DNA of 60,181 nt, the filler included. It is 5 parts of 5 records of this genome, joined end to end, with 100 filler letters (N's around TTAATTAATTAA, not from the genome) between each part and the next. Parts side by side here need not be neighbours in the genome. Positions count along the whole stretch, not along the records: positions 1 to 15,346 come from SRR31147125_24719; 4 more parts are not named here. The stretch is one strand, 5' to 3'. The position numbers and the translations under genes were made by a program. Positions 1 through 20,997 of the stretch are shown one piece after another; position 1 is the first letter of the stretch; each line of letters starts with the position of its first letter. Under the pieces are notes generated by a model. It was not told the DNA's origin. It searched no databases and saw nothing but the letters and a program-made list of their open reading frames with translations.

Positions 1-74
1 GGTTTTTGCGAACTTTTATTGACACTAGCCTGAAATTTCTCGTATTCAGCCTTGGTAATCGTGACGGTTTCCAT
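1..74 (-). CDS. tnpC: Probable IS66 transposase TnpC N-terminus (partial)
   Basis: Hand translation METVTITKAEYEKFQ..., downstream of tnpB and preceded by TGGTATAAT. Confidence 0.5.
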   Translation of the reverse strand, partial: METVTITKAEYEKFQASVNKSSQK

Positions 75-152
75 ACATAAATTATACCATATTTCAAGCT
101 GAAACAACAGAAAAACACAGCTTGAAATCAGGCGGTTTTTTGCTTTTTTAGG

Positions 153-509
153 CTATCCGAGAACCATGCTTTTACATGGTTTTACTGCCTTTGGCTGTGC
201 AATCGATAGCCCTTCCATGAGACATCTGTACTGCTGTTGTGTGATATGTTTTGCTTGCTCGGTTGACCTCGGCCATTGGAAGCTGCCGCGCTCCAGGCGT
301 TTGTACAACAGAACGAATCCGTCACCTTCCCAATAAAGCACTTTGATTCTGTCACACCGTCTGCCACAGAACAAAAACAAACTGTTTCCGAACGGATCCA
401 GCTCGAAGTTCTTTTGCACGATTAGTGCCAGCCCATCTATTGACTTTCTTAAATCCGTATATCCGCAGGCAATGTAGATGTGTTCTGCGCCGGTAAAATC
501 GCTTAGCAT
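153..509 (-). CDS. tnpB: IS66 accessory protein TnpB
   Basis: Motifs GYTDLRKSIDGL, LFLFCGRRCDRIKVLYWEGDGFVLLYKRLERG and FQWP. Confidence 0.95.
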   Translation of the reverse strand: MLSDFTGAEHIYIACGYTDLRKSIDGLALIVQKNFELDPFGNSLFLFCGRRCDRIKVLYWEGDGFVLLYKRLERGSFQWPRSTEQAKHITQQQYRCLMEGLSIAQPKAVKPCKSMVLG

Positions 510-634
510 ATCTTGGAGAGCGCTCGGAGCGCTGTTTCAATGGTTTCGGCGTCTGCACCATTGCGGATTCGTATTTCAGCACCTCCGAATTGCACGGTGA
601 CTGAGGCATCTGAACTCCGGCGAATTGGTTGCTT
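503..634 (-). pseudogene. tnpA: IS66 TnpA C-terminal fragment
   Basis: Frame reads ...SVTVQFGGAEIRIRNGADAETIETALRALSKIC* and overlaps the tnpB ATG. An in-frame TGA lies just upstream, so the 5' part is missing. Confidence 0.6.
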
Positions 635-755
635 ACGTCACAACCTGCTCACTATTTCCAACAATAACACTTTATTTCCTTTTGTGGGAATGCTTAAACT
701 TGAGCTCGTTAAGATTGTCCAATGAGTAGATCATGCCATTTCCCTAAGTCTTTAA

Positions 756-1930
756 CTACTCATGCCTTAAAGCAGATATCGGTTGTAACTTTGAAGCCTT
801 ATTTGCGGGACTAACACCAAAAGCTACTCCCACACCCAATGCAAACAATACCGACGTTCCCATCATGGAAATTGATATTGTAAACGATAAACCATAAGAA
901 GCCCCGATTATTCCCAAAATTGATACTATACCAACTGAAAGTAAAACACCAATTAAAGCCCCAAATAAACACAACATAACTGATTCAAAAAGAAATTGCA
1001 TCAGAATACTAAATCGACTTGCTCCAATTGCTTTTCTAATGCCAATTTCACGCGTACGTTCTGATACAGTTACCAACATGATATTCATAATCCCTATACC
1101 ACCAACAACCAGTGATATTGTAGCTATACCCCCAAATAAAATCTTCAATATGATTAGTACCTGATTTACAGTATCAACATTGGAAGTTTGATTATAAACT
1201 GAGAAAGCTTCTTCGTCTCCATAAAAATAGTTATTAAGTATATGCTCCATTTCATTGATCGCATTGTCCATATGCTCTGCGGAACAAGCAGAAGCCGCAA
1301 TGTAAGTAATTTGTCCTTGTTGAAATAGGTCACAAAAATATGTATATGGAATAAATGTGTCGCCGGCAAACAAAATACCTAAGTCTTTTTCCAACACACC
1401 TATGACTTTTAATTTCTGACCATTAATTATGACTTGATTTCCCAAAGCCTTTTCAGCCACTCCAAAAGTTTTTCCGCTACCGAAAATCTTAATACAATGA
1501 CATTCGAATTGTTTTGTACATCAACCCTTTTAATATTTCTACCACAAGCCAGTCTTTGCTTCAATATTCTACCAAATCCTGATGTTACCCCTGAAACTGT
1601 TGTTGTTTCACTAAAATTATTATAATGAATATCCGTTCCAGCCATTTCAGTGGTTGAGATATCGGCTATATAAGTACTATGGGCTTTAAAATCTTCAAGC
1701 TCGTTTAATGAGATTGGATAAGATAAATTCTTTATTGATGCCGAAAAAAAATTTGTTCCAATCGCGTCAAGCTCTGTTAAGACTCCTCTTGTAACGCCAT
1801 CAACAAGCGAAAGCAGAACTGTGATTGTTACAACCCCTATAACAATACCAATCATGGTCAGCAATGACCGCATTTTGTTACCTATAATGGACTTCCATGC
1901 CATTTTTAGTACTTGAGTTATCATTATCAC
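756..1930 (-). CDS. MacB/FtsX-family ABC permease (frameshift near 1430-1475 joins ORFs 1427-1930 and 756-1460)
   Basis: N-terminal NKMRSLLTMIGIVIGV; C-terminal GGIGIMNIMLVTVSERTREIGIRKAIGA and LQPISALRHE. Confidence 0.9.
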
Positions 1931-2628
1931 ATAGCCTCCAGAATTTGTCCATCAAATATAGCGACTGTTCGTTTAGCTCGTGAGGCAATATTGGTATCAT
2001 GTGTAATCAAAACCACGGTACGCCCTGATTGATTAATCTCATGAAATAGCGCCATTATCTCTGCACCAGTTTTAGAGTCCAAATTACCGGTAGGCTCATC
2101 AGCAAGAATAAGTGAAGGCTTCGTTACCAGCGCCCGAGCGATCGCCACCCGTTGTTGCTGTCCCCCTGAAAGTTCACTAGGTTTATGATGCATTCGATTC
2201 TCAAGTCCAACACGTTTAATAACTTCAGCCACCCGATTAACACGTTCTTTCTCGCGGACTTTTTGGTATATTAACGGTAACTCAATATTTTCCCAAGCAG
2301 TCATTTTATCGATTAGATTAAATCCTTGAAAAATGAATCCTATTGTTTGATTTCTTAGCCTAGCCAGCTCATATTCTGAAAAGTCTACCACAGGAACGCC
2401 ATCCAATACATATTCCCCTTCATCATACATATCCAAGCATCCTATGATATTCATAAGTGTAGACTTCCCGCTCCCGGACGGACCAATTATACCCACAAAT
2501 TCTCCATGTTCAATAAAAATATCAATTTTATCAAGTGCTCGAACTTGCTCATCCCCAATTTTAAATATTTTAGATATCCCTTGCATAGCGACTAAAGGAA
2601 GTGTTGTGTCCCCCTCATTATTCCCCAT
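1927..2628 (-). CDS. MacB/LolD-type ABC ATP-binding protein
   Basis: [23 protein letters not shown] and [11 protein letters not shown]. The GGAGG spacing favours a start at 2628 (alternative 2634). Confidence 0.92.
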
Positions 2629-4093
2629 TTCCATTCTCCTCCGTTTCCGGTAATAGCACAATATTTTCATAAAGAACAATATCACCCGTAACTAGCCCTG
2701 AAACAATCTGTACATAATAATCGTTTGCGATCCCTGTAACGATGTTCTTACGTATTTTATCTTGACCTGTTAAATCTCCAGATGGAGTAACATATACATA
2801 TTCACCGTCACCATCCTCCAAAACCAATTCTAAAGGTAAAATGACGCCTTTGTTTACACTGTCAATTGTGAAGGAAACCTTACCGTTCATACCAACAAGA
2901 AATCTTTTATTATCTGAAAGACTCAGTGTAATAACAAATGTTGTTATCCCATCTGTAACATTACCTAGATGGTTAATATCCGTAACTACCGCATTGAACT
3001 TTTCATTAGGAAATGTGTTTAACTCAATTTTCGCCTCTTGTCCGATAGATATTAGTGCAATATCTTTTTCGCCTAAGCTCGCTTCAAATTGACATGCGCT
3101 ATTGTTAATTAGTGTGAAAATAGGTGTATAAATACTTTCTTGCCCTACTACGTCTCCATTTGATACGTTTACCTCACTAATAATACCGGCTTGTTCAGCA
3201 ATTATATTAGGCGATACAATTAATTCATTTATTAGAACTAGCTTTCCGTTTAATCGATTATATTCCTCTACTAAATCATTGTATGTCTCTTTGATCTGTG
3301 CCTTCTTCCAAGTAATAAGCTTGTCACCAACAGATACCTTATCATTTATCTTTACATGTATTTTTTTAATATTGCTGTAATCTCCACGAATCGTTATAGG
3401 TGCGTTAATCTGCAATGTGCCCTCTCCTATTTTCTTATCATCCTTGAATATTTCAACATTTTCACCTACAAGTAATGAATCATCAAATATCTCAACGACA
3501 TAACTACCTGACATTACCATGTCGATAATACCATCAGCACTATTACCGTCTTTTAGTTTTACCTTAACATGAGACCCCATTGCAAAAGTCGTATCACTCA
3601 TCACTTCTACGCGCATCTTTCCATCTAAAGCAATGACGATCAGTGCTTCATTATCTTTACTTTGCGATATTGACTTTATCCTCCCGCTAACTTCTGCATA
3701 CGTAGTTTTCTCACTTTTGGTGGAATCCATTGATACAATCGTTTGCTCTAACTCTTTTATATTGGCGACACACTTTTTCTGTAGCTCTTTTAAAGCAACT
3801 ACATCAAGTGTCGCGAGCACATCACCCTCAGATATTGCCGTCCCTCTTTTAACCGTAACTTTATCAATTTGCACACCACTTAAAACAGATATATTCTGTA
3901 TATCACCACCAATCAATGCTCCTTTACCTGATACATTCTTTTCTAGCTTGTCTTCATCTACAACATAACTTTGATAGGTCGCTTTCGATTTTTCCATAAC
4001 CGTTATATTATTAACAACAACAATAGCAATTGCTATTATGATTAAGATGACTATAGTTAATACAATTCGTTTTCGCGCTTTAGTTTTTTTCAT
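2618..4093 (-). CDS. HlyD/MacA-like membrane fusion (efflux adaptor) protein
   Basis: N-terminal TM anchor, lipoyl-like hairpins (VKRGTAISEGDVLA, VSNGDVV) and a C-terminal TGIAND...SGL motif. It precedes the MacB-type ATPase and permease. Confidence 0.85.
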   Translation of the reverse strand: MKKTKARKRIVLTIVILIIIAIAIVVVNNITVMEKSKATYQSYVVDEDKLEKNVSGKGALIGGDIQNISVLSGVQIDKVTVKRGTAISEGDVLATLDVVALKELQKKCVANIKELEQTIVSMDSTKSEKTTYAEVSGRIKSISQSKDNEALIVIALDGKMRVEVMSDTTFAMGSHVKVKLKDGNSADGIIDMVMSGSYVVEIFDDSLLVGENVEIFKDDKKIGEGTLQINAPITIRGDYSNIKKIHVKINDKVSVGDKLITWKKAQIKETYNDLVEEYNRLNGKLVLINELIVSPNIIAEQAGIISEVNVSNGDVVGQESIYTPIFTLINNSACQFEASLGEKDIALISIGQEAKIELNTFPNEKFNAVVTDINHLGNVTDGITTFVITLSLSDNKRFLVGMNGKVSFTIDSVNKGVILPLELVLEDGDGEYVYVTPSGDLTGQDKIRKNIVTGIANDYYVQIVSGLVTGDIVLYENIVLLPETEENGNGE

Positions 4094-4318
4094 TTTAATT
4101 CCCCCTACAAATTAGTTTTAACATTTTTGTTTGTCATTTGTTTTGCAAATCATTTACGCCATCCGAATTTTGTTTTATTACTTGAAACTGCATTTATATT
4201 TCTTAGAGCTACTTAATTCACTTTTCGACCTTGAAAATATATGCCACTTCTTCTATCATTCTTCTGTAGTATTTTTCACATAATTCACCAATATGTAATC
4301 CTTTCTATTAGTTCTTTA

Positions 4319-6207
4319 TTATATAACGTAATCATCTTGTAATTGTTCATCTTGATAATACTGTGCTTGAGCGTTCCACAATTCATGATATTTGCCAGAT
4401 GCATCTAACAACAACTCTGTGTGAGTTCCATGCTGAATAATCTTACCCTTATCAAAAACCAAAATTTCATCACAAAAGCGACATGAGCAAAGTCTATGAG
4501 ATACAAAAATGGCTGTTTTTCCATTTGCAAATTTTTTAAAATCAGAATATAGATTATATTCTGATATAGGATCAAGTGCAGCTGTGGGTTCATCTAAAAT
4601 CATAATCGGAGCATTTTTGTATAAAGCCCTTGCAAAAGCAATTTTTTGAGCTTCACCACCAGATATTTCTTCACCAAATGCATCAAAATCTTTATAGAGA
4701 TTTGTGTTCATTCCATTTTTCATCATAGCATATCTGTCTCCAAACCCAGTCTTCTTAACTATGTCTTCCAAGCTAGAAGAATTATAATTTACTTGGCCAG
4801 AAATATTTTGACCTAGGGAAAATGAGAATAATGAAAAATCTTGAAACACAACAGATATTAATTTTATAAAATCTTTAAATTTCAGCTTTGCAACATCCAA
4901 ATTATCAATAAGAACCTGCCCTATTGAAGGGTTATATAACCGGCATATTAGCTTTACAAATGTTGTTTTCCCAGAGCCGTTTTCTCCGACAATTGCATAC
5001 TTTTTCCTTCATCTAATTTAATGGAAATTCCATTGAGCGTATATGTATTATTGGATGGGTACTTGTAATAAACATCTTTAAATTCAATATTATACGATGA
5101 TACAAGGCATTTTTCCCCTTCTTTATTATCATCTTGAGCTAAGTTTAAATAATCAAAAGTATCTTGTAAGTACTCAGTATTTTTTACTAATCTACCTATT
5201 ACAGCACACATTTCAGTTACACTTAGAATAAATTGCTTTGAAACGCCGGTATACTGAATAAAATTACCAATTCCGAAGGCACCAAAATATGTTTTAATAC
5301 CAACAAACATATAGATAATGATATCAACAATTGTTAATAATGTAACCCTAATCTTTCCGTAATGGTTATGTAACTTCGAAATTTTTTCAATGTATACTGG
5401 TTTAATTGTCCATTTGTTTATTTCTTCCATAATTTTATCTATTTGTCGATATATGCGTATATCCATTGCTCCAAAGTTGTCCTTGAGACTTCTTCGAAAA
5501 TAATTAAGCAGTCGATTAGATTCTGGTAGTTTACGCCATTCATCACACTCTTTTTTGAATTCCCTATTGCTACATGTAAGTGATCCGAAAATACATAATC
5601 CAATTATTGTTAGCACACCAATATGTAAAAACGGCGAGTTAAGACTAACATTCGCTACGGAATTTGAAGGAAGCATTTTAATGAACATACCAATACCAAG
5701 AATGATTGACAATACAATCGAGCAAAATGAAGTAACTCCCGAATGAAGTGTATAAAATAGCATACCTAATCCTGCGCTAGTTGCATTTTGATTTGTTTTG
5801 ATTTTATTTTTTAGTAGTCTTACTTCTGAACTTTCTAATAAATTAAACGGCATTTTATTGTTAACTTCATTAAAAAATATTTCAAGCCGCGCATTCCATT
5901 GATTAGCATGAACTTCAAGTCTATTTGCAGAAAACTCTCGAATAAAGGATAAGATAAGTTCAGAAATCAAAACTATTATCACAGCTTCTATAATTTTCTG
6001 CAAATCTTTACTTGACGTTAAAATATTAATAACTTGTGCTGAAAAATAAAGCGCAACAAAAGGAATAATCGCTGTGGCAATGGCATTTATTACGTTCCAC
6101 AAAACATATGCTTTATCCAATTCCCAAATAATTTTATAACCTTTGCCAATCAACGCAAGTCCTTTTTTATTTTCTTTGCTGAATTTACCATCACTCACAA
6201 CTTCCAA
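4319..6207 (-). CDS. ABC exporter, fused TMD-NBD subunit B (frameshift near 5000 at the Walker A region)
   Basis: TM domain in ORF 4954-6207; ISGGEAQK, ILDEPTAALD and FVSHR in ORF 4319-4900. Confidence 0.88.
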
Positions 6208-6226
6208 TCCTCCGCTTATGGATTTC

Positions 6227-8020
6227 TTATATTAGTTCAGCATTGCTTTCGGCATGATAATAATGACCTTGAATACTAAATAATTCAGAGTACTTTCCAT
6301 TTTGTTTTATTAATTCATTATGACTTCCTGTTTCAATTATTTCTCCGTTCTCCATATAGAGAATTTCATCACAAAATCTTGTTGAAGCTAGACGATGAGA
6401 TATAAATATCGATGTTTTGTCCAATGTCATACTATTATACTTCAAATACATATTTTTTTCGGCAATTGGATCAAGCGAAGCTGTTGGTTCATCCAATATG
6501 AGGACTGGCGCATCTTTATACAAAGCGCGCGTTAATATTAATTTTTGTTTTTCTCCTCCAGATAGTTCTATTGCATTAGGAAACACCTCTTGTACCAACA
6601 GAGTCTTTGCCCCAGCAGGCAACGAAGCTAACTTATCTGATAATCCTGCCTGTTTGATACATGCTGCAAGTTTAAGTTCGTTAATGTTATCACAAGCAAT
6701 ATTTTTTTCAATTGATAAGGGAAGTAAATGAAACTTTTGAAATACAACAGAAAATAATCGATAATAATCATCACGGTTGTATTCAAAAACAGAATGCCCG
6801 TCTATTAGAATTTCCCCTTTAGTAGGAACGTACATTCCGCATATTAGCTTTACCAAAGTTGTTTTTCCGGCTCCATTCAATCCAACAATAGCCATTTTTT
6901 TGCCAGCATGGATAGTAAGGTTTATATTCTTCAGCGTTGGTTCATCCGCTCCCGGATAAGAATACTCAACATTGCGAAATTCAATGGTGGGTTTCTCTGA
7001 AGAAATTGTCACACCTATATTTCTATTAAGTTTATCTTCAATTTCCAAATATTTTCTTAGATCTCTTATCTGATAATTTCCACGAGTAAGAGCGGAAAAG
7101 TTGTTTAACAAGTCACCTAATATATTAACAAATTGACTAATTGCTGCAAAGTACAAAATGAAACCTGCAACACTTATTTCTCCATTAATAGTAAATGATA
7201 TTAAATACCAATACGCTAATCCGTCACGAGCAAGTATTACAATCAAGTCGATAAAAACAGAAAGAATTTTTCTCCTAGCTAGCTTGTTAAATAAACTAAA
7301 ATGTTCTTTGAAAAACATTTTAGATAGATCAGAAATCCATTTACCCAAACCATAAATACGAATATCTTTGCCGAATCGAAAGTTCTCGGAGATTCTTGAT
7401 AAATAATCAAGTTTTCGAGAAACAGCAACGCGTTCATCCTTTGTTTTGTTTTCATAATGATTTGAGTATAAGATAGTTAAATATTGAAGCCCTGCCGCTA
7501 TCAAAAGCCCCGCAATAATTAATGGATTTAGTATAAAGATTAATGAGCCAAATAATGCAAATTTCAATAATGCTATTAGTAACTGAGCAAAACTATTAGG
7601 GACGTGGATTGCTTCTGTATGATTATTTGAAACAGCTGCATCTGCACGCTCAGCCATAATTTTGGTTCTAGGATCTTCTAAATGCGCATAATCAATATCT
7701 AAATTTTTCTTATATAGCAGTGATAAATAATGCAAGACGAGCTTGTGCTCAGAGACATATTTCTTTGAATCAAGCTTATTAGAGATTATACTAAGAATCC
7801 ATCTTATAAGGAGAAATCCTGCAATAATTAATATCACTTGTAAAAGTGCAGTATTCGCCGATTCAAATTCCCTTACAATCGCAGCAGGCATAACAAGATC
7901 TATTACGGCAAGCAATAGTGTCACAGGAATACTAAGAACAGCAGCGATCGCCAACGTTTTGTCCACTTCCCATATATTTTTAAATACAAATCTTATATTG
8001 CTCGTAAATTTGAACTTCAT
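6227..8020 (-). CDS. ABC exporter, fused TMD-NBD subunit A (no N-terminal C39 peptidase)
   Basis: GLNGAGKT, LSGGEKQK, ILDEPTASLD and FISHR, after a multi-TM N-terminal domain. Confidence 0.93.
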   Translation of the reverse strand: MKFKFTSNIRFVFKNIWEVDKTLAIAAVLSIPVTLLLAVIDLVMPAAIVREFESANTALLQVILIIAGFLLIRWILSIISNKLDSKKYVSEHKLVLHYLSLLYKKNLDIDYAHLEDPRTKIMAERADAAVSNNHTEAIHVPNSFAQLLIALLKFALFGSLIFILNPLIIAGLLIAAGLQYLTILYSNHYENKTKDERVAVSRKLDYLSRISENFRFGKDIRIYGLGKWISDLSKMFFKEHFSLFNKLARRKILSVFIDLIVILARDGLAYWYLISFTINGEISVAGFILYFAAISQFVNILGDLLNNFSALTRGNYQIRDLRKYLEIEDKLNRNIGVTISSEKPTIEFRNVEYSYPGADEPTLKNINLTIHAGKKMAIVGLNGAGKTTLVKLICGMYVPTKGEILIDGHSVFEYNRDDYYRLFSVVFQKFHLLPLSIEKNIACDNINELKLAACIKQAGLSDKLASLPAGAKTLLVQEVFPNAIELSGGEKQKLILTRALYKDAPVLILDEPTASLDPIAEKNMYLKYNSMTLDKTSIFISHRLASTRFCDEILYMENGEIIETGSHNELIKQNGKYSELFSIQGHYYHAESNAELI

Positions 8021-8065
8021 TTTCTACAATCACCAATCTATAATCAAATATTTCTAAAACCTTGA

Positions 8066-8581
8066 TTATTCACATATATATTGTGTACCAATATTACCGA
8101 GGCTCTCAAATCCGGCATTCTTAAACGTTTCCTTATCGCTCACACTATATACATAATTCCCATTATGCGCCATTACATAAAACTCTGAATACTCCGATTC
8201 GTATTCGTCAAATACAGAAACAGCGTCCTCTTCAGAAAGCCCATAGCATATGTCAATGTAATGATTCCCTTTGCTTGCGTATATTCTCTCTGCTAAAATC
8301 GTTGTATTTAGCGCCTCGTCATATTCGGAAATTTCATACCCTTTATCTTTTAAATTTTGTATTAGCTCAGTTTTTTGCGGAACAATTTGATTAATATCAA
8401 ACATATCCTCATTTACTTCCCCTTTTTCGTCCACAAGATTTGCAACATTTATTTCAAAGTTAGCAATACCATAGTTACGTGTAATATTCAAATGCTTGGT
8501 TTCTGCTTGGCAAGATGAGCAGAACAATATTCCTGCAAAAAAAGCTGATATAACAATTGATCGTATATTTTCTCGCTTCAT
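8066..8581 (-). CDS. Putative lipoprotein or secreted protein (possible immunity)
   Basis: Basic N-terminus, hydrophobic stretch and Cys (LFCSSC), with a GAGGGAG RBS. It lies between the precursors and the exporters. Confidence 0.65.
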   Translation of the reverse strand: MKRENIRSIVISAFFAGILFCSSCQAETKHLNITRNYGIANFEINVANLVDEKGEVNEDMFDINQIVPQKTELIQNLKDKGYEISEYDEALNTTILAERIYASKGNHYIDICYGLSEEDAVSVFDEYESEYSEFYVMAHNGNYVYSVSDKETFKNAGFESLGNIGTQYICE

Positions 8582-8689
8582 AATATCTCCCTCTTTTGAA
8601 AGCTAGATCACAATCCAAGCGTTCCGATATTCAACGCAGAACGCCTGAATTGTTTACTATGTAAAACATGACGTTTGGCAACTTTGGTG

Positions 8690-8839
8690 TTAACTGCAGC
8701 CGCGGTTTGTTATAGGACAAGTATTTACTCTTATTACCCCAGGACAGTTTCCCGTACAATTAGTGTTTTCATCAAAGAGCATGGCAGTATCCAACCTTTC
8801 GAGTACAATCTTTTTCAAAAAATAGAATTTCTTTTTCAT
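8690..8839 (-). CDS. RiPP precursor peptide 6 (49 aa)
   Basis: MKKKFYFLKKIVLERLDTAMLFDENTNCTGNCPGVIRVNTCPITNRGCS*, with RBS AAAGGAGG. Confidence 0.9.
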   Translation of the reverse strand: MKKKFYFLKKIVLERLDTAMLFDENTNCTGNCPGVIRVNTCPITNRGCS

Positions 8840-8880
8840 TTTGCAAAGCCTCCTTTCTATAAATTATAATGTGAAATCTA

Positions 8881-9009
8881 CTAACATCCAATATTTGTTA
8901 CGGGACAAATATTAACGTCCTTTATTGGGCAGCCACAATTTTGGTTTTCAGCATATACCTCGAAGCATAACAAGGATTCATCGACTGCTTTTTTTGAACA
9001 CTGAAACAT
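8881..9009 (-). CDS. RiPP precursor peptide 5 (42 aa)
   Basis: MFQCSKKAVDESLLCFEVYAENQNCGCPIKDVNICPVTNIGC*, with RBS AAAGGAG. Confidence 0.88.
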   Translation of the reverse strand: MFQCSKKAVDESLLCFEVYAENQNCGCPIKDVNICPVTNIGC

Positions 9010-9032
9010 ATCCGCATCTCCTTTCTGCCAAC

Positions 9033-9176
9033 CTAATTACATATGCCTGTGTTGTTACAAACCTTGTTAGATCCCGGACAATTTGCAGTATTCGTACAAG
9101 TATTTGTTTCGGCATATAAGGTGACACTTTGTTTGCTTTCTATTATTTTCTTTTTCCGAAATACATATTTGAACAT
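9033..9176 (-). CDS. RiPP precursor peptide 4 (47 aa)
   Basis: MFKYVFRKKKIIESKQSVTLYAETNTCTNTANCPGSNKVCNNTGICN*, with RBS GGGAGG. Confidence 0.9.
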   Translation of the reverse strand: MFKYVFRKKKIIESKQSVTLYAETNTCTNTANCPGSNKVCNNTGICN

Positions 9177-9195
9177 TTTTATTCCTCCCAACTTC

Positions 9196-9363
9196 TTAGC
9201 ACCCTACATTTTGGGAAACGCAATATGCCGTGTTTGTTGCTCCATTTCCAGCAGAACACTTGGTATTAGTTGATGTGCACGGCGTGTTTTGCACGACCTC
9301 AGCGTAAAGACTTAAATCCATTAGATTTTCTTTTACTTTTTTCACAAACGTTATTGTTTTCAA
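9196..9363 (-). CDS. RiPP precursor peptide 3 (55 aa, TTG start)
   Basis: MKTITFVKKVKENLMDLSLYAEVVQNTPCTSTNTKCSAGNGATNTAYCVSQNVGC*, with RBS AGGAGG. Confidence 0.9.
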   Translation of the reverse strand: MKTITFVKKVKENLMDLSLYAEVVQNTPCTSTNTKCSAGNGATNTAYCVSQNVGC

Positions 9364-9382
9364 AATAAATTGCCTCCTAACT

Positions 9383-9517
9383 TTAGCATAAGTTCGTTAC
9401 CGGACAAGCAATATTCTCCCCTGGTACAGGATTGCAACCGCAATCAGTATTTTCCCCATACAAACTTATATGAGCGAGATTTTCATTTATATTTTTTTTA
9501 TTAAACGTAACATTCAT
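9383..9517 (-). CDS. RiPP precursor peptide 2 (44 aa)
   Basis: MNVTFNKKNINENLAHISLYGENTDCGCNPVPGENIACPVTNLC*, with RBS GGAGG. The true start lies inside track ORF 9383-9631. Confidence 0.9.
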   Translation of the reverse strand: MNVTFNKKNINENLAHISLYGENTDCGCNPVPGENIACPVTNLC

Positions 9518-9660
9518 AATACATAGCCTCCAAAAAAGCACCTTATTTGTTCTTAACGTAACTTCACACAATTTCGAAAGCATAAAGGAGAAAAAAACAT
9601 AATGTTGCTCATTACTCCAATACGCTTTCAAAATCGATACTAGACGTTTTTACGTTTGGA

Positions 9661-9798
9661 TCAACCACCGCAAACGCCATCAATAGGGCTGTTGCACACA
9701 CCATAGTCATTACAGTGTAAGTTTGTATTACTCTCTCCATAAAGTACGGCGTTCTTCATACTTTCCATAACAAACTTCTTAACAAATACCAATTTCAT
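9661..9798 (-). CDS. RiPP precursor peptide 1 (45 aa)
   Basis: MKLVFVKKFVMESMKNAVLYGESNTNLHCNDYGVCNSPIDGVCGG*, with RBS AAAGGAG. Confidence 0.9.
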   Translation of the reverse strand: MKLVFVKKFVMESMKNAVLYGESNTNLHCNDYGVCNSPIDGVCGG

Positions 9799-9884
9799 AG
9801 TTTACTCTCCTTTCTTTATTAATTATATTGTGGTAAATGAGTGTTTTCTGCGAAATCTGCAGCTTTCGCCTCCACAATAAAAAT

Positions 9885-10447
9885 CTACATTTCGTTTATA
9901 ATAGTCATAGCAAAAATATGAGTTTCTGGATTTTCTGGTAATACAATTTCTTTAACGCCATTATTCATTAAGATAATATTATGATAAATATTTAATTTGC
10001 AAAATCCATTACTCTGTACTCGAACTGCTATTTGGCATGTATCGTTTTTTTCACAATCGTATAATGATGTAATATTTTCAGACATTGAATAAAAACAAAG
10101 CGTATGATTATGTATACAGTCATCTTTGTCAGTACAAACAACTTTGTCTTTATAAATGCCAAATTCATTAAACCCTAGAATGGCAAGGGCATTGCAATGA
10201 ATATCTGGAAAAACTATTTGTTGCCCTCTGCAAATAATATTGTCCAATTCACTTTTCTGACCATACACCCTATAACGGATGCCCCCAATATATCGCTCTA
10301 TTAAAACCTCTGCGAATCGCGGATCACTAATACAACTACCGGCAACACCAACTTGATCTATCATTGTGTCATCTATTAGTTCGTTATCACCCATCATCTT
10401 ATGAGAAAAGTAGCTACTTATATCAACGGGATAATATTTTTTTTCAT
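9885..10447 (-). CDS. Hypothetical cluster protein (about 187 aa; likely start 10447 with a frameshift in an A8 run)
   Basis: GGAGG plus an ATG overlapping the upstream TGA. One extra A gives MKKKYYPVDISSYFSHK in frame with ORF 9885-10397. Motifs DNIICRGQQI and LPENPETHIFAMT. Confidence 0.7.
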
Positions 10448-11415
10448 ATTATCCTCCTGGATGCCGAATCCATCAAATTGAACAAGTTCTCATACCATCT
10501 ACTAATATATGGTCTTATTGATTCTGCCTGTAACGCAAGTGCATTGTGACTCCTCTCACTCGGAGCAATATCGCATTTAATACCAAATGTACGTATTAGG
10601 TTTAATCCTTTTAATAAAGCACTTGTACAGTCTATTTGAACTCCTGCCATGTTTTGCAACCAGTCTTCACGCTGAAAAGATTTTATAACTTCTGTAAGTA
10701 AAGTGGCAAATTGCAAAGGTAGCTTGTCCCGTGTTTTAGCAATATCAATTAGCTCATTCATAAACCTATACAACGATATGTTAGATTCTGTTAAACGTTC
10801 AGTCATATCCTTGCATCTATTACAATATTGTTTTAACATGTTTTGATTTTGGTTGTTTTTCTCACTGCGAGAAAATACTATCATATTTAGATCATCTTCC
10901 TTATCATTATAGCCTTTCTTATATGCTTCAACAAAATCTGCAAAATGCATTTTATAATGCTTATATATCGCAGAAACAGTCGTTTGATGTTCAATAACAT
11001 CAAATTCCTTTTTTATTTGATCAAATCCAAAAATCAAAATATAATGTGTTGTGAAACTTTTCTGAGTTTTCTTCATGGTATCAGGATCAGATGCAACTGC
11101 TTCAATTACCTTACACATAACCAAAGATCCCATTAATAAATAGTCTATTATTACTCTAATAATGTTTGAATCGTAAATGTTGGTAATTTGTGTTATAATT
11201 CCGGCTTCTATTTCCAATTCCTGTCGTGTTTTATGTTCAAACTGTGTGACACAAAAACCATCATGCCAATATCTAAAATAGCAACCTAAGTTTAAAATAT
11301 AAGCGAATTCGCTACCACCAAGAGCAGAAAAGGCTGGAATATAACCATATTCAAAGCAACTTCCTAATGCAAACTGGTTAAATGGTTGTACTTGGTGAAC
11401 TATACTATCCGCCAT
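10444..11415 (-). CDS. BtrH N-terminal-like / papain (C39)-like fold protein, putative acyltransferase or peptidase
   Basis: N-terminal QPFN...SCF Cys motif and THYILIFGFD His motif. Confidence 0.55.
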   Translation of the reverse strand: MADSIVHQVQPFNQFALGSCFEYGYIPAFSALGGSEFAYILNLGCYFRYWHDGFCVTQFEHKTRQELEIEAGIITQITNIYDSNIIRVIIDYLLMGSLVMCKVIEAVASDPDTMKKTQKSFTTHYILIFGFDQIKKEFDVIEHQTTVSAIYKHYKMHFADFVEAYKKGYNDKEDDLNMIVFSRSEKNNQNQNMLKQYCNRCKDMTERLTESNISLYRFMNELIDIAKTRDKLPLQFATLLTEVIKSFQREDWLQNMAGVQIDCTSALLKGLNLIRTFGIKCDIAPSERSHNALALQAESIRPYISRWYENLFNLMDSASRRII

Positions 11416-11436
11416 AATACTTCTCCTTTGAATGCG

Positions 11437-11658
11437 TTATTCAAGCTCCATTAATTTTTTTGCAAGTTGCTTAATCTTAGCTTTTGGAACTCCGATAATT
11501 GCACCAAAATCGTCTTCAATTATCTCTCTTAATGTATAGTTCAGCGCTTCTGAAAATCTTGGATGGCGAGTTATTGTTGGTAATGCTTGTGAAATCATTT
11601 TAACCGCCTGTTCATTGTTCATTACCTCAGAAAGTGACGAATTCATTGTAATCTTCAT
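11437..11658 (-). CDS. Small hypothetical protein (73 aa)
   Basis: AAAGGAG RBS and co-oriented within the operon. Confidence 0.7.
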   Translation of the reverse strand: MKITMNSSLSEVMNNEQAVKMISQALPTITRHPRFSEALNYTLREIIEDDFGAIIGVPKAKIKQLAKKLMELE

Positions 11659-11753
11659 TTAAATATCTCCTTTATAATAATATTATTTCATCAGTCTTTA
11701 TAATTGTAATTATATTGATGATGAAACATTAGTTGCTTTTGGAAAGAAGTACT

Positions 11754-13566
11754 TCATGCACTTGCATCTTGATTGTCTAAATCACATTCACTGGCTTCTG
11801 ATGTGCAATAAAAATTAACTATGCTTTCGAAAATTACAGAATCATCACGCTTATCACCAGATACAACTACTGGAATACCAAGTTCTTTCATTAACCTCGA
11901 CTTGATAATTTCAATTTCGCTATCTGTTAATAACCTTTTCGAAACGTCTATAACGTAATCTTTCTCTGTATGAAATGCATAGAGTGCTAGTAAAAATACT
12001 TTTGCACCACACAAGCTCTCAATTGCAGTTATTGCTTTTTTTATGTATTCCAGTTCATCTGATTCATTAATGGATAAAACAACTCCATCTGGTAGAATAC
12101 CGTATAAAAAGGCAAACTGATTAATGTTTATATGACCTAAGTTATAGGTTGCATGAGGTAAAAACCCGGATTGACCACCAACTAAAATTAAATCTTTTTC
12201 TTTCACATCAATCTTATGTATTTGGTAATTAAATGCCTCAATTATTTCAGTTCCTGTCTTTTGACTTAAAACACTATCATATCCTAATGGAAGCATCGCA
12301 TCACAGCCAAGCAAGCTCGCATTAGGTTCTGTACCAAGAACACCCAGGTCAACACCATTTTCTATCAATACACGTTTAATCTGCATTTGCAACGTAAATT
12401 TTCCTTGCTTCTTATTTGTACCAAGAACACATAAAATGGGTGTTTTAATTTGATATAACCGCCCCTGCTTTTCCTTTATTGAATAATTATCAGCATACTC
12501 CAGCGTTAATCCACACTCGTTAAATCTTTGAGCATATTCATCTACCAAAACACTATCAAAGCAATAAACGTTTTTTTTGTATTTAAGGCATTCCAACATA
12601 AGCTCTTTTTTAATGTCCTTGCCAACTAACATACTTAATTCACGAAGATGTCCGATAATCAAAGTATCAAATGAATTCCAATCACATTTATCTATATTTT
12701 TTACTGTAAAATGTTTTTTACCACTAAAGCTCTGAAGAGCACGCCCTACGTTTGTTGAATATTTAACATCATAAATATCAATTAAATCAACCCTTAACAT
12801 ATCAGCATAATTGATCAGCGAATAAACCTCTTTATTTAGGGGGAATACCGCTGCTTTTGTTTCTAAAACCATGTTTCTTTTTATATCTGTTGTCACTTTA
12901 TATTCATTATTAAAAATCTTCATGGCCTCAACTTTTGTATGAAACTCTCGGTTTTGTTCTAATAAGGCAAGCGATACATACGAAGCAGCAAAGCTATTCC
13001 CTTGTTCTGCCGTAAATCCCTTTTGATTATTTGATGCTACAACCTGCATACCGCTTTTTGCATATAAATCTAAAGTGCCTCCGTAGTTCACAGAAAATTC
13101 GTGCTTAGTTTTTATAAACGGATTACCAGAAACTCCAATTACAAATGAGAAAGCTGCCGGGTATGAAATAGCACCACAATTGTCAAAAGCAGCAACAATA
13201 ATCATTCCTTTTTTCATATAGCTTTTGACATACATTAAGTAAATCTCTGCTGAATCCCCGTACACCAAAGCTCATTTGTATAATTTTGCAGCTTATATTT
13301 TCATAGACATAATATAATGCAGACAAAATACCATCAATATTACTCATGGTAACGCTTGTAAATGCTTTAAAAACAGCATAATTGCCAGAGTGACCTTTTT
13401 GCACAATTGATAATACTGCTGCCCCGTGACCAATCTCATCTTTATCATTATACGTTAATACCCACTCATTACCATTGAACGTATAAACATCAACGCTTGA
13501 ACTTAAATGTTGTAAATCATATCCCGAATCTAAGAGAATCAAATCATAATTCTTTTTACAACTCAT
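11754..13566 (-). CDS. S8 subtilase fused to a DUF1611/TIGR04066-like P-loop domain (frameshift at T-run 13209-13214)
   Basis: Catalytic triad LLDSG, GHGAAV and GNSFAAS, with AAFDN and SYPA. C-terminal CVLGTNKKQGKFTLQ. Removing one A restores KLYEKGMIIVAAFDN. Confidence 0.8.
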
Positions 13567-13605
13567 AATAAACCACCTTTTTTCGCAGCTAAAAAGTTAA
13601 ATTTG

Positions 13606-13848
13606 TTACGCTTTTAACGGTAATATAACTTTATCCAAAAAGTCCAGCAACGTATATTCGTTTATATTCACAGAATACGCATCATCAGGTATCCAAACAT
13701 CAAACTCTTTTTCTACTTCTATAAAAAAAGAAACTAGTGAGAGCGAATCAAGTATCACGTCTTTAATCTGAAGCATTTCATTGAACGACTCTAAATAAAC
13801 ACCAATATTATCCAACACTATTTCAATCTTCACTACATCTTCTCGCAT
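13606..13848 (-). CDS. Acyl-carrier-protein-like (phosphopantetheine-binding) protein
   Basis: 80 aa and acidic, with an LDSL serine motif followed by FFIEVEKEFDVWIPDD. Confidence 0.85.
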   Translation of the reverse strand: MREDVVKIEIVLDNIGVYLESFNEMLQIKDVILDSLSLVSFFIEVEKEFDVWIPDDAYSVNINEYTLLDFLDKVILPLKA

Positions 13849-13858
13849 ATTCTATACC

Positions 13859-15171
13859 TCACATAGTTTTAAAAAGTTCTGGCTTATGTTTATATAGCGA
13901 TATAAACTCATTCTCACATTGATCACAATTAGGGAATCCTTCAGATGCCACATGATGTATTGGACATAGCACTCCAAAGCAGTTTGCATATAAAGCACAT
14001 TCCTCACATTTCGTTTCTTTCTTTACTGGCGGCGCAGCCGGATATCTCCATTTTGAGTAATTTTTGATATCTTCAACGAAATCTCCGTTTCCATCAATTT
14101 CTCCAATCTTGTTATAATCAGAATTCAAATTTACCGTACAGCGCATAACATTTCCATTTGGATCAATCGTATAGGTTCCACATTTTGCAGCATAGCATAT
14201 TTGATTTTCAAAGTAAGGATGATGCCCGTTTAACTTCAGCGTCGTATCTAAGGCATCTAATTTTTCAAGTATTGGATTTTTTGAGTGCTTAGTATCATGA
14301 ATTAAAGTATCCGAAATTTTTTCTATTGTCGTGCCCCCCCAATCTCCAACTGCCTTAAAAAGAAACTCGAACCTGTTATCTCCTCCAAAGTTCTCCTCAA
14401 GTTCTCTAACTTGATTATCTAGATCGGCTAAGGTGTCACTCGTTAAATTAGTTCGTACTAATATCTTAAATAGTTTTGACTTGCAATTATTCTTTATATC
14501 TAGTAAATTTTTTAGAATAGCATCATAAGTAGGTCCTCCCCCGACAAGAGGTCTTGTTTTATTATGAAACATTGCGCGTCCATCAAGCGTAATTTGATAA
14601 TGTGTTACTCGGTATTCTCTAAATAATTTTTTAAAAGTTTCATAATTCAACAAATATCCATTTGTTGTTATATTTGAGGAGTAGTTTTTGCGATAAGCCC
14701 GAGCTAAAGACATAAGCCTATTACTCAGCTTTTCAATAACTTTCAAGCATAGTAATGGCTCTCCGCCAAACCAACTAACATGGAGCGCTTTTTCTCTTTG
14801 TAGTTTTTCTTCGCAAAATTTACTATCCTATCAATTACTTCATCGGTCATTATGCCAGGCACCTTTTCTTCATAACAATAAGGGCAACGGAAATTACACA
14901 TCATTGTTGGCAAAATAATTAAATCAAGAATACCATCGTCTATAATAGACATATATTTCAAGAAAGCTCCTTTGTCCTCATCAAAATCGGAATCATTAAC
15001 AATGCCTTGTTCTTTCATGAAGCATAAGGTGTCTTCCTTAAGAGTATTAGGATCAGTAGTTTCGTATAGGTGCTTACTTAAACGCGTAAATGAACCTACT
15101 AAAGTATTAAAAATCAAAACTTCTTTGTCAACGTATGCTTTGTAATTGTATTTAGACCATTTAAATTGCAA
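13859..15171 (-). CDS. Radical SAM/SPASM peptide maturase with an N-terminal RRE-like extension (frameshift near 14775-14810)
   Basis: CNFRCPYC. The second frame supplies SWFGGEPLL, TTNGYLL and QITLDG, then SPASM cysteines CYAA...GNVMRC and CEECALYANCFGVLCP. Confidence 0.92.
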
Positions 15172-15270
15172 ATCATTACTCCTTTATTGCTTGCGCTATT
15201 CTAGATATTTTTAGTTTACTTATCTTTATTTGTATTTATTATTAATTATTCTTATTATTGTTGTGTTTAT

Positions 15271-15299
15271 ACTATATCAGGTTATTTTGTTTTTATCAA
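15271..15299 (-). promoter_or_regulatory. Putative sigma70/SigA promoter of the RiPP operon
   Basis: TTGATA-17 nt-TATAGT with an extended -10 TG, about 100 nt upstream of the rSAM start. Confidence 0.5.
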
Positions 15300-15346
15300 C
15301 TATTTTTTGTTATTTTTTATCTACGTTGTCAATTGATCTGTTACAC

Positions 15347-15446
15347 NNNNNNNNNNNNNNNNNNNNNNNNNNNNNNNNNNNNNNNNNNNNTTAATTAATT
15401 AANNNNNNNNNNNNNNNNNNNNNNNNNNNNNNNNNNNNNNNNNNNN
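15347..15446. other. Artificial contig linker
   Basis: N44-TTAATTAATTAA-N44, which has stops in all six frames. Confidence 0.98.
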
Positions 15447-15968
15447 AGTGGGAATCATGTTGAACCTTACTCAACATATCAGGATGAGCTACGATACTTT
15501 ATTAATGAAACTCAAAAAAGGGGAGGAAAGCCTGTCTTGGTAACTTCAACGAATCGACGAAGATTTAATGATGGAGGCAAAATTGTAAATACTCTAGAAG
15601 AATATCCTGATGCTATGCGCCAATTGGCTGCAAAGGAAGGAATTCCACTGATTGATTTAAATGCAATGAGCAAAGATTTATATGAAGCTTTAGGGGTTGA
15701 GAATTCAAAGAAAGCTTTTGTGCATTATCCTGCAAATACATATCCAAACCAGGATAAGCCATTAGCCGACAATACACATTTTAACCCTTATGGGGCTTAT
15801 GAGTTGGCAAAATGTGTTGTTCAGGAGATATTGGAAAAACAAGTTGATTTCAGCAGCTATGTTGTTGACGATTTTGGAATGTACAATCCTTCAAATCCCG
15901 ATTCCTATGAAAACTTTTTCTGGCCTGAAAGCCCATCAATTGAGTTGGTGAAACCTGATGGAAATTAG
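15447..15968 (+). CDS. GDSL/SGNH rhamnogalacturonan acetylesterase (CE12-like), 5'-truncated
   Basis: Frame open from the contig edge; PVLVTS, PLIDLN and DNTHFNPYGAYELA (DxxH). Confidence 0.85.
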   Translation, partial: SGNHVEPYSTYQDELRYFINETQKRGGKPVLVTSTNRRRFNDGGKIVNTLEEYPDAMRQLAAKEGIPLIDLNAMSKDLYEALGVENSKKAFVHYPANTYPNQDKPLADNTHFNPYGAYELAKCVVQEILEKQVDFSSYVVDDFGMYNPSNPDSYENFFWPESPSIELVKPDGN

Positions 15969-15990
15969 AATAATTTAAAACAACTATTTG

Positions 15991-18832
15991 ATGATAAAAA
16001 TAATTACACTCTTACTTTTTAACTTTTTGTAATATTCCAAAGAATGAAGATTCTTTCATTATTTCTTCGAAAACAAAAATGGCTGATTTGGTAGTGTCAG
16101 AAGATGAAGATATGGTTGTTCAAACTGCAGCTAGTTTATTTTCTGAGGATGTTGTTGCCATTAGCAATCGCACGATTAACATCGTTTCAAAAAGTAAATC
16201 TGAATTTCAAATCGTAGTTGGGACAGTGGGGGTTTCCAAAAACTTTGACCAAAAATGTGATCATTACGGGATTGATCTTGATCGGCTAAAGAAAAGTTGG
16301 GAAAGGTATATCCTGAAGTCTGTAAAAAGTCAGGATGGAGATGGGAATGTGCTTTTGGTTGTAGGGAGCAATCCCCGGGGAACAGCTTTTGGTTTAATGA
16401 AACTTAGTGAAATGATTGGTGTTTCACCGTGGGTGTGGTGGGCTGATGTGCTGCCCGAAAAGCAGGAAACAATTAGTCTACCTATTGATTTAGAGATCGA
16501 AGATTCACCTAAAGTAAAGTTTCGTGGTATTTTCTTGAATGATGAAGACTGGGGACTACAACCATGGGCTGCAAAAACCTATGAACCCGAAACGGGTGAT
16601 ATTGGACCAAAAACCTACGGAAAAATATTCGAGTTGCTTCTTCGTTTAAAGGCAAATATGATATGGCCAGCCATGCACGATTGCACAAGAGCCTTTTTTA
16701 CCTATCCAGATAACATTAAAATGGCAGACAAATATGGGATATGGGTAGGATCATCGCATTGCGAACCGATGCTTCGGAACAATGTTGATGAATGGAAAAA
16801 ATGGGATCCAACTATCGGTAAACGTGGAAAATGGAATTTTGATGAAAATCCGGATCAAATTACAGAATATTGGAAGCAACGTGTAGAAACAACTGCATCG
16901 TATGACGGTATATATACGGTTGGTATGCGTGGAATACATGATGGAGGCATGCCGGGAGGGAATAATATTGACGATAAAGTTAAAATCCTTAGTAGGGTAT
17001 TGAAAACCCAGCGGAGTTTACTTGCCAATATTGTTGAAAAAGAGATAACTACGATCCCTCAGATTTTTTGTCCATATAAAGAAGTTCTTAAGTTGTATAA
17101 AGCTGGTGCTGAAATTCCAGAGGATATAACTATGATGTGGGCAGATGATAATAACGGTTATATTCGCCAGCTTTCAAATGAAGATGAAAGAATGCGAAAG
17201 GGTGGAGCAGGAGTTTATTATCATATTTCATATTGGGGCAGACCGCATGATTATTTATGGTTGGAGTCTATTCCGGTTTCCCTTATTTGGGAAGAAATGT
17301 ACAAAGCCTATCAAACTGATGCAAAAAATGTATGGATAGTAAATGTCGGTGATATTAAGTCGAACGAAATTGGAATGAATTTTTTCCTTGAAATGGCATG
17401 GGATCCAGAACAATTTTCATCTGAAACATTAGGATCTTACTATACCCGGTTCTCAAAAGTACAGTTTGGGAACAAATATGCTGAAGAAATAGGAGGAATA
17501 CTTCGTAAATATTTTCAACTTGCTTTTTCACGAAAGCCCGAACATTTAGGATGGAATGGGGTATATCCAAATACTGCAATCCATGATCCTGAACTTTCAT
17601 TATTTTGTAACGGTGATGAAGTGCAACAACGAATAGATGCTTATGATCAATTGGAAAAACAGGTGAGCGAGTTGTCTGAAAGTTTGCCGGAGAATCTGAG
17701 GGATGCTTTTTATCAACTTGTGGCTTATAAAGTTATTGGAGCATCAAATATGAATAAAAAGATTATGTACGCTTACAAAAGCCGGGTTTATGCTAATCAA
17801 GGACGGACGAGCTCTAATCTATATGCCCAAAAGTCAAAAACAGCTTTTGAGAAAATCAAGCGGATTACAACTTTTTATAATGATTCATTAGCCAGCGGAA
17901 AGTGGAAATATATGATGACCTATAATCCACGTGAATTGCCGGTATTTGCTGAATCACCAACCGGAAGTTATACCCCAACCCAGAAGGTTTCAGGAGGAAT
18001 TATTCCAGAAGGATTTTCATCCCCGCCTGATTCAAATGGTGCATGTTTACCAGTTTTTAATTCATTTGCAGATTGTAGCTATTTCATTGATGTTTTTAAT
18101 AAAGGAAATGAACCGTTGAAATGGGAAGCTGAGAGTTCTGACGAATGGATAAAACTTTCAAAAAAAGGAGGTAAAACTGACATGCAGGAAAGGGTATGGA
18201 TTTCTATAAATTGGAATGAGCTATCTCAAATGGATACGGTTCAGTCTAAAATCATTTTCAAGCTTAAAGGAAATGAATTCCCTGTATATGTTAAGGCTGT
18301 TAAGTCTTCATATTCTGCTACTAGTGAAACAGTGAGTTTTGAGAACAACGGCCTAATCTCAATTCAAGCTGAAGACTATACCAAACTAGATAATAAAATT
18401 GAAAAAGAATGGAAAATAATTCAGGGGCTGGGTCTGCATGACGATGCTATTGGTGCATTTCCTGCAACTGCAAAAGACTGGAATCAAGATGTTTCCGAAG
18501 ATTACCCTGTCTTAATTTATGATTTTATATCGACTTCAACTGGAGAGGCAAGTTTAAGTTTTTACTGTCTGCCTAATCATCCGATAAATGATGATTATGA
18601 ACTCCGTTTTGAAGTTGTTCTTGACGATGGGGAACCAATTATTATTAATGCTGCTTTAGAAGATGAAATGGATGAACACAATACAGAGTGGCAACAGAAT
18701 GTTCTCCAATCTTTTGTTACTAGACAAATGAAAACAGTTGTTAAAGAAAAAGGGAAACACCATCTCAAAATAAAGATGATAGACCCAGGAGTTGTTCTGG
18801 ATAAAATTGAAATTAAATTTCTTGAAAATTAA
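15991..18832 (+). CDS. Glycoside hydrolase family 115 (alpha-glucuronidase-like); signal peptide start 15991 is frameshifted relative to ORF 16079
   Basis: GVSPWVWWAD, RGIFLNDEDWG, LLLRLKANMIWPAMH, SHCEPM and GMRGIHD. Confidence 0.9.
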
Positions 18833-20983: not shown

Positions 20984-20997
20984 GAAACCATGTAATA

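Follow-up and report, generated by a model that had tools for sequence, protein, structure and literature searches.

Introduction

Gene clusters that combine several Cys-rich precursor peptides with a radical S-adenosylmethionine (rSAM) enzyme are a known kind of system for ribosomally made peptides that undergo modification after translation (RiPPs). This report concerns such a cluster, located in a 60,181-nt stretch of DNA (hereafter the window, meaning the whole stretch analysed) whose positions 1-15346 come from record SRR31147125_24719, and whose leader and core family is without a curated model. Among the closest described systems, the CLI_3235/CcpM cluster of Paenibacillus polymyxa (SacP23) comprises an rSAM/SPASM enzyme, a protein related to acyl carrier proteins (ACPs), a TIGR04066 protein and a subtilisin-like protease, and in the accessible part of the source the CLI_3235 peptide cluster with that accessory set is called a sactipeptide by prediction only (PMC10731318). 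As described in the available portions of the respective papers, the peptide NxxcA carries a link, made by NxxcB, between Cys23 and the C-beta of Asn20, with Asp tolerated (PMC8326336, PMC9389541), freyrasin links Cys to Asp (PMC8326336), and CrpC, a member of TIGR04463, installs ranthionine links (PMC13692751). In the accessible text of the Hungate1000 bacteriocin survey, ranthipeptide detection is by TIGR03973 only. No paper describing the peptide family of the window was found; supplements of rSAM-RiPP compendia, which lay outside the search, may list it unnamed.

Here, six small open reading frames (ORFs) at 8690-9798 of the window are reported as probable genuine precursors of a multi-precursor, rSAM-dependent RiPP system, a reading to which the sequences of the genes and of their homologues lend good support. 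The peptide family is unnamed.

Results

Six probable precursor genes in tandem

A first-pass annotation of the window had reported six tandem minus-strand ORFs of 42-55 aa, each with its own ribosome-binding site, and both the ORF list and the reverse-strand sequence bore this out at 8690-9798:

9661-9798, minus strand: precursor 1, 45 aa, ATG start; leader ending LYGE; 3-Cys core with a DGVCG-type C-terminus
9383-9517, minus strand: precursor 2, 44 aa, ATG start; leader ending LYGE; 4-Cys core with a CP-x-TN-type C-terminus
9196-9363, minus strand: precursor 3, 55 aa, TTG start; leader ending LYAE; 4-Cys core rich in Asn, Thr and Ser
9033-9176, minus strand: precursor 4, 47 aa, ATG start at 9176; leader ending LYAE; core with 7 Asn and 4 Cys
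8881-9009, minus strand: precursor 5, 42 aa; leader ending VYAE; 4-Cys core of the CPVTN-x-GC type
8690-8839, minus strand: precursor 6, 49 aa; leader ending LFDE; 4-Cys core of the CPITN-x-GC type

All six starts are preceded, at a distance of 7-9 nt, by AGGAG, GGAGG, AGGAGG or GGGAGG. The ORF finder starts precursor 2 at TTG 9631 (82 aa, 9383-9631) and precursor 4 at TTG 9191 (52 aa); ATG 9517 and ATG 9176, each with a Shine-Dalgarno site, are consistent with the family alignment. That five of the ORFs had gone unlisted and one had been mis-started, as first annotated, is consistent with a length floor of 60 aa, which leaves only the 82-aa ORF.

Alignment of the six peptides showed an invariant M1, a K-K pair, E12, E22 and two Cys, confirming the leader pattern and the endings LYGE, LYGE, LYAE, LYAE, VYAE and LFDE that had been noticed before. 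The leader, of about 22 aa and with the consensus F-x-K-K-x-V-x-E-x(6)-L-Y-x-E, is conserved in other genomes, as are several core classes. Taken together, the six cores contain 19.6% Asn and 15.5% Cys. They had been described as variable, with 3-4 Cys each; the counts stood (3, 4, 4, 4, 4, 4), but the cores are not freely variable, as classes recur across species. One class, with a DGVCG-type end, comprises precursor 1 and three peptides of locus L002, from a metagenome-assembled genome (MAG) of Ruminococcus flavefaciens. Another, with an early N-x-x-C-x-C and a C-P-x-T-N-x-x-C-type end, comprises precursors 2, 5 and 6 and many others, and a third, rich in Asn, Ser and Thr and with 4-5 Cys, comprises precursors 3 and 4. 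At least three more core classes exist, none of them in the window.

The peptides form a family of their own

A hidden Markov model (HMM) trained on 17 homologues from other loci, zero window sequences being among them, was searched against the 1122 stop-to-stop ORFs of 25-150 aa in the window. It retrieved exactly the six precursors, with E-values from 1.3e-11 to 3e-7, the seventh best being 0.028. A profile of 23 peptides run against 1.84 billion representatives matched 44 proteins at E ≤ 0.001, 43 of which are peptides of 35-85 aa with the same leader and core classes; the other, the 729-aa repeat protein P0150, was rejected as unrelated, its weak matches being summed over repeats. In the ten protein clusters that were checked, the sole source name was 'hypothetical protein [Ruminococcus sp.]'. 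None of the six window peptides and none of the 23 family members matched any NCBIfam model at E ≤ 10, Pfam gave nothing usable for either set, and the six-peptide alignment had no match in a word-indexed protein search.

Comparison of closely related strains gave 35/1314 differences in the ORFs versus 28/587 in the spacers (p 0.026), and a second strain comparison gave 13/1314 versus 17/587 (p 0.004), with zero indels in the precursor ORFs. These data bear on the notion that the six arose as open frames by chance, or encode leaderless, unmodified peptides unconnected with the neighbouring enzymes. Their shortness, the lack of a database family and the word search without a protein cluster would fit such a notion, which is nevertheless scarcely credible given the independent profile matches, the Shine-Dalgarno site before each ORF, the fewer substitutions in ORFs than in spacers, and the retention of the arrays in syntenic clusters, described below.

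Precursor arrays accompany the maturase in related loci

The cluster-bearing contig (contig A, 1-15346) has one rSAM/SPASM gene:

13859-15171, minus strand: rSAM/SPASM maturase, in two ORFs (14743-15171 and 13859-14746) with a frameshift between them

Its intact homologue P0001 has 440 aa and is 58 and 50% identical to the two window pieces. An rSAM piece used as query matched 133 proteins at E ≤ 1e-5, 12 of them at 52-59% identity and the others at 39% and below; the best match is named as a protein of a R. flavefaciens MAG. A scan of genome contigs with only the rSAM piece as query gave no relative, and scans with an rSAM alignment succeeded, yielding 103 loci altogether: 23 from genomes and, as the best 80 of 488, 80 from metagenomes.

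A leader-plus-core profile of 50 sequences was then run against 25,492 small ORFs from the 103 loci and the window, at a threshold of E < 0.01. The first-pass annotation had suggested looking for leader homologues near rSAM genes, and arrays were found together with the maturase in every one of the six further loci with an rSAM identity of 39% or more to P0001. These hold nine precursor genes each in L001, L002 and L024, four in L003 (at a contig end), five in L025 and three in L026. Among loci with a more distant rSAM, only 5 of 96 (L006, L031, L032, L034 and L041) had a match. Within the whole genomes G001-G003, all 22 profile matches fell inside the arrays. The earlier view of the ORFs as RiPP precursors, with a conserved leader and diverse cores served by one maturase set, thus gains comparative support from these sequences.

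Not only the arrays but also the order of the surrounding genes recurs. The shared order is rSAM, ACP-like, subtilisin-TIGR04066 fusion, a 73-aa protein, a BtrH/CtaG-like protein, a protein of about 184 aa, precursors, a secreted protein and ATP-binding cassette (ABC) exporters. In tblastn comparisons with L002, which shares this order, identities were 58/50% for the rSAM, 57/53% for an intact 586-aa protease fusion, 37% for the BtrH-like protein, 35% for a 182-aa protein, 48% for a 156-aa protein and 42% for the ABC protein. The pair of rSAM and protease fusion is present also in the distant loci L006, L007, L031 and L052. An ACP-like ORF, searched with the window protein, was found in 18 of the 103 loci, including all six close ones, and lies directly after the rSAM gene wherever coordinates were compared. 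The 73-aa and ACP-like genes have homologues at the same positions in Ruminococcus MAG clusters. The family is mainly one of rumen and gut Ruminococcus-type bacteria.

Some features of individual loci were also recorded. Precursors in L025 (1252-1374, 4965-6200) and L026 (163-300, 2226-2828) are dispersed over two or three sites of the cluster, after the ACP-like gene and before the rSAM, and do not form one array. The L003 contig, of 6.2 kb and assigned to a Holosporales MAG, holds a Ruminococcus-type cluster with four precursors, its rSAM being 49% and its protease fusion 52% identical; the Holosporales label looks doubtful for this contig. Loci L006, L007, L031, L032, L034 and L041, with an rSAM of 30-35% identity, contain short peptides in which leaders of similar type (K-K ... 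L-Y/F-x-E) precede Gly/Cys-rich cores (CC-P motifs). Leaders of this type in distant clusters suggest, at the level of sequence, a wider leader superfamily.

Frame breaks in the cluster-bearing contig

In contig A, the reading frame is disrupted in five genes, namely those for the rSAM, the protease fusion, an ABC protein, the MacB permease and the protein of about 184 aa. All five breaks lie within homopolymer runs of five to eight A (A5-A8): A5 near 14789-14793 in the rSAM, A6 at 13209-13214 in the protease fusion, A8 at 10437-10444 in the ~184-aa gene, A5 near 5001-5005 in the ABC gene and, for the MacB permease, near the A5 run at 1469-1473. Genes on other contigs are split alike. Profile positions 1-169 and 170-299 of a sulfatase fall on neighbouring ORFs, and an amidohydrolase profile is covered from 1 to 249 and from 259 to 344 by neighbouring ORFs, the Pfam coordinates continuing over the break in both genes; for SusD, one half matches an N-terminal and the other a C-terminal SusD model.

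Because the breaks sit in A runs and similar splits affect genes of other contigs, the indels of contig A are read as homopolymer assembly error, which is likelier than decay. A decaying, non-functional cluster, with real frameshifts and the six ORFs as relics, would account for five frame disruptions that include two key enzymes. This is improbable in view of the position of every break in an A5-A8 run, the similar splits elsewhere, the intact state of the six precursor ORFs, which score like their relatives, and the conservation of all catalytic motifs of the rSAM. The gene that the earlier annotation had called broken is most likely an assembly artefact, being one of the five A5-A8-run indels and retaining all those motifs.

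The window carries four linkers, each with 12 bases between two stretches of 44 N, at 15347-15446, 31214-31313, 38668-38767 and 52904-53003, from which it follows that it consists of five separate contigs joined end to end, and that adjacency across linkers is uninformative. The peptide cluster fills contig A, an end of which lies 175 nt upstream of the rSAM start, and the contig is closed by the first linker:

15347-15446: contig-join linker, 12 bases between two stretches of 44 N, closing the cluster-bearing contig

Outside the cluster, split and overlapping ORF pairs were seen at 22713-24406, 24456-25927, 31266-33329 and 34441-35810; for the ABC region at 31266-33329 the observation is of overlapping ORFs only. 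These splits point to indel errors throughout the assembly. Contig 15447-31213 holds a polysaccharide locus of Bacteroidota style (SusC/SusD, extracytoplasmic function sigma factor, GH115, GH42 and sulfatases) without Shine-Dalgarno sites. Strong AGGAGG sites occur at 1-15346 and 43504-52903, unlike in that contig. The bin behind the record may be of mixed taxonomy. Horizontal transfer, considered for the neighbouring Bacteroidota-like locus, was dropped since the join linkers place that locus on another contig.

The maturase and the spacing of Asn/Asp and Cys

Translations of the two rSAM pieces contain the CX3CX2C motif (CNFRCPYC), GGEPLL and the C-terminal SPASM Cys motifs. The SPASM model TIGR04085 scored 29.3 bits on the window protein against a cut-off of 27, and Pfam Radical_SAM 59.9 against 29.5 on P0001. 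The top curated family was Clo7bot TIGR04334, with 88.2 and 49.5 bits for the window pieces and 171.5 for P0001, below its cut-off of 600. TIGR04068 (CcpM) gave 34.6 and 19.1 bits for the pieces and 83.2 for the intact homologue (cut-off 500), and the SCIFF maturase model TIGR03974 gave 66.9 bits on P0001 (cut-off 425), so neither cut-off was reached. The closest NCBIfam neighbours are the Clo7bot, TIGR04463, CefB and PapB maturases; the PapB, TIGR04463 and SCIFF models match the rSAM at E-values from 1e-18 to 1e-47, none at its curated cut-off. Among solved structures, CteB is the closest (E 4e-20). Since the nearest curated families are peptide maturases that include the thioether-forming PapB, TIGR04463 and SCIFF, we infer that the enzyme would form thioethers under guidance of the leader.

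The cores show a regular spacing of Cys with respect to Asn or Asp (N/D). One of these residues stands at position -3 or -4 of 19 of the 23 Cys in the window and of 139 of the 169 Cys in 47 cores, and this rule holds across core classes. Shuffles within the cores left on average 61.4 Cys with N/D at -3/-4, and none of 2000 reached 139, a comparison that overstates the significance because the peptides are related. At -3 alone, N or D precedes 14 of 23 Cys in the window and 91 of 169 in the 47 cores, the N-x-x-C core motif being present. Because this spacing matches NxxcA, three to four small beta-thioether rings per peptide are tentatively favoured as the product, a choice by analogy that falls a little short of an even chance.

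Real precursors might instead carry alpha-thioethers, as in a sactipeptide, disulfides or other Cys chemistry. The sequence cannot separate rSAM/SPASM enzymes that form alpha-, beta- and gamma-thioethers, the curated matches are far below cut-off, and a CLI_3235 cluster with a like accessory set is predicted as a sactipeptide in the accessible part of its source (PMC10731318). Such chemistry is nonetheless rather unlikely, considering that N/D is enriched at -3/-4 of Cys in all core classes, with an upstream acceptor spacing like that of NxxcA.

Accessory and export genes

The genes around the array, beyond the maturase, are the following:

13606-13848, minus strand: ACP-like gene, 80 aa with a D-S-L-S motif, easily missed at under 100 aa
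11754-13566, minus strand: subtilisin (QhpE-like) fused to a TIGR04066/DUF1611 P-loop domain, two ORFs with a frameshift
11437-11658, minus strand: conserved 73-aa protein, which matches no known family
10444-11415, minus strand: putative BtrH_N/DUF4872/CtaG-like papain-fold protein, 323 aa
9885-10447, minus strand: conserved protein of about 184 aa, no family
8066-8581, minus strand: 171-aa protein whose N-terminus has a hydrophobic segment (signal or anchor), conserved beside the array
4319-8020, minus strand: two MsbA-type ABC half-transporters, at 6227-8020 and at 4319-6207, the latter split at an A5 run
2618-4093, minus strand: HlyD/MacA-like adaptor
1927-2685, minus strand: MacB-type ATPase
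756-1930, minus strand: MacB permease, split near the A5 run 1469-1473

The ACP-like protein matched ACP models at E 1e-5 and, with 16.8 bits against a cut-off of 70, TIGR04069 at E 0.007. In the protease fusion, the translations contain DSG, GHG and GNSFA motifs; the QhpE model, the best match of the protease domain, gave 35.5 and 30.2 bits for the window pieces and 73.1 for the intact L002 protein (cut-off 165), and the TIGR04066 model gave 72.6 bits (cut-off 200). In the 323-aa protein, Cys20, His124 and Asp139 are invariant among four sequences and may correspond to the Cys-His-Asp triad of BtrH/CtaG/CcbD-like papain-fold transacylases. Atlas look-alikes of this protein score 0.97 and are BtrH_N/DUF4872/Peptidase_C39_2, Pfam BtrH_N matched its L002 homologue at E 0.0028, below the cut-off, and Foldseek returned CtaG (best E 6e-6), AziU3/U2 and CcbD (E 6e-6 to 6e-3) at a template modelling score of about 0.24, using a weak model with a predicted local distance difference test (pLDDT) value of 60.9.

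The ~184-aa gene begins at ATG 10447, which overlaps the upstream stop (ATGA) and is preceded by AGGAGG; loss of frame in the A8 run makes the ORF finder place the start 50 nt too far downstream. Its AlphaFold2 model was poor (pLDDT 52.8). A 170-aa protein had no match in the word-indexed protein search, and the 171-aa protein may act in immunity or as an accessory factor. Of the 710 positions of the NHLP exporter model, the 597-aa ABC protein covers 142-709, and thus is without the C39 peptidase part.

Two RNA hairpins flank or interrupt the array:

9569-9636, minus strand: strong RNA hairpin in the 143-nt spacer of precursors 1 and 2 (z -4.21; 0 of 200 shuffles fold as well)
8610-8653, minus strand: RNA hairpin directly after precursor 6 (z -3.19; 0 of 200 shuffles fold as well)

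Both have no U tail and could be processing or stabilising elements. On contig A, no Rfam family was found, and scans for promoter and terminator consensus gave sites no more frequent than in shuffles.

The set of rSAM/SPASM enzyme, ACP-like protein, TIGR04066-like protein and subtilisin-like protease, here as distant homologues, corresponds to that listed for the CLI_3235 cluster of P. polymyxa, which would fit membership of the small ORFs in the CLI_3235 (TIGR04065) bacteriocin family. Scoring against TIGR04065 had been proposed in the first-pass annotation and spoke against it: none of the six window peptides and none of the 23 family members matched at E ≤ 10, and TIGR04068, TIGR04066 and TIGR04069 were all below cut-off, making membership highly improbable.

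Discussion

A proposed maturation pathway

In the mechanism proposed for the cluster, the single rSAM/SPASM enzyme would use its N-terminal domain to bind the leader common to all precursors, and would cross-link each core Cys to a nearby acceptor, most likely the Asn or Asp at -3/-4. The product would be a peptide with three to four small thioether rings, as in NxxcA. Judging from the roles of their families, the subtilisin domain of the fusion would cut the leader off near the conserved Glu and the two MsbA-type ABC proteins would export the products, and the HlyD/MacB set together with the 171-aa secreted protein may give self-protection. A second chemistry, besides the rSAM thioether rings, can be imagined for the remaining conserved genes: the ACP-like protein, possibly loaded by DUF1611, would deliver an acyl or aminoacyl moiety to the enzyme of BtrH/CtaG type, giving a peptide amide. 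We regard this addition as doubtful.

Several points weigh against the reading of the six ORFs as precursors of an rSAM-dependent RiPP system with thioether rings. Modification, transcript and peptide are predictions from the gene sequences. Five cluster genes, including rSAM and protease, are out of frame, and if these breaks are real, maturation would be impossible here. As the rSAM scores far below every curated family cut-off, its reaction is unreadable from family membership, and the other Cys chemistries discussed above, as well as the relatedness of the peptides behind the N/D statistic, count on the same side. Finally, the system is rare: of the genomes searched, 2 of 161 in the genus and, in a sample of the family to which G001 belongs, 1 of 401 have it. 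The reading is upheld as probable.

The family offers a testable sequence rule, namely that nearly every Cys is preceded, at a distance of three or four residues, by Asn or Asp. The conserved trio of ACP-like, DUF1611 and BtrH/CtaG-like proteins may explain what CLI_3235/CcpM systems do, and if the two-chemistry reading were true, the superfamily with rSAM, ACP-like and subtilisin-TIGR04066 proteins, CLI_3235 included, would be a RiPP/carrier-protein hybrid pathway. In rumen and gut carriers of the Ruminococcus type, the peptides could shape competition or signalling.

Comparison with known systems

Clo7bot peptides occur in tandem sets. The present cluster resembles Clo7bot in its tandem Cys-rich precursors and in that Clo7bot is the best-scoring curated rSAM family; it differs in that its rSAM is far under the cut-off and its precursors match no NCBIfam peptide model. 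The likeness to NxxcA/NxxcB of Streptococcus orisratti, a beta-thioether ranthipeptide system, concerns the core spacing: in NxxcA the acceptor Asn is three residues upstream of the donor Cys, a position often taken by Asn or Asp here, whereas NxxcA has one cross-link as opposed to 3-4 Cys per core here, and leader, accessory genes and host differ.

Freyrasin/PapB, SCIFF CteA/CteB and CrpA/CrpC (TIGR04463) have thioether-forming SPASM enzymes, which belong to one superfamily with the present maturase. In freyrasin the Asp is downstream of the Cys, in a C-x3-D motif. SCIFF differs in being a single conserved peptide, the window peptides having no match to SCIFF models, and CrpA in being a large repeat protein. 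QhpC, QhpD and QhpE mature quinohemoprotein amine dehydrogenase. Like the cluster described here, with its predicted counterparts, they associate an rSAM/SPASM thioether enzyme with a small subtilisin-like leader protease; unlike it, their substrate is an enzyme subunit rather than a set of short secreted peptides, and the QhpE cut-off was not reached by the window protein. Systems with double-glycine leaders and C39 exporters differ as well, since leaders here end in L-Y-x-E, with no GG/GA site, and the transporter is without a C39 domain.

Another likeness is to CLI_3235/CcpM: the cluster has distant homologues of its four accessory parts, and like it has Cys-rich precursors together with an ABC exporter. 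In contrast to that system, every part here is far below the cut-offs, the protease and the TIGR04066 domain are fused, 3-9 precursors are found versus one listed for SacP23, and a BtrH/CtaG-like enzyme and two small proteins of no family are added. Because all parts score below the cut-offs and the peptides have no TIGR04065 match, the accessory set is, as judged from profile scores, a distant sister of CLI_3235/CcpM and not a member of it.

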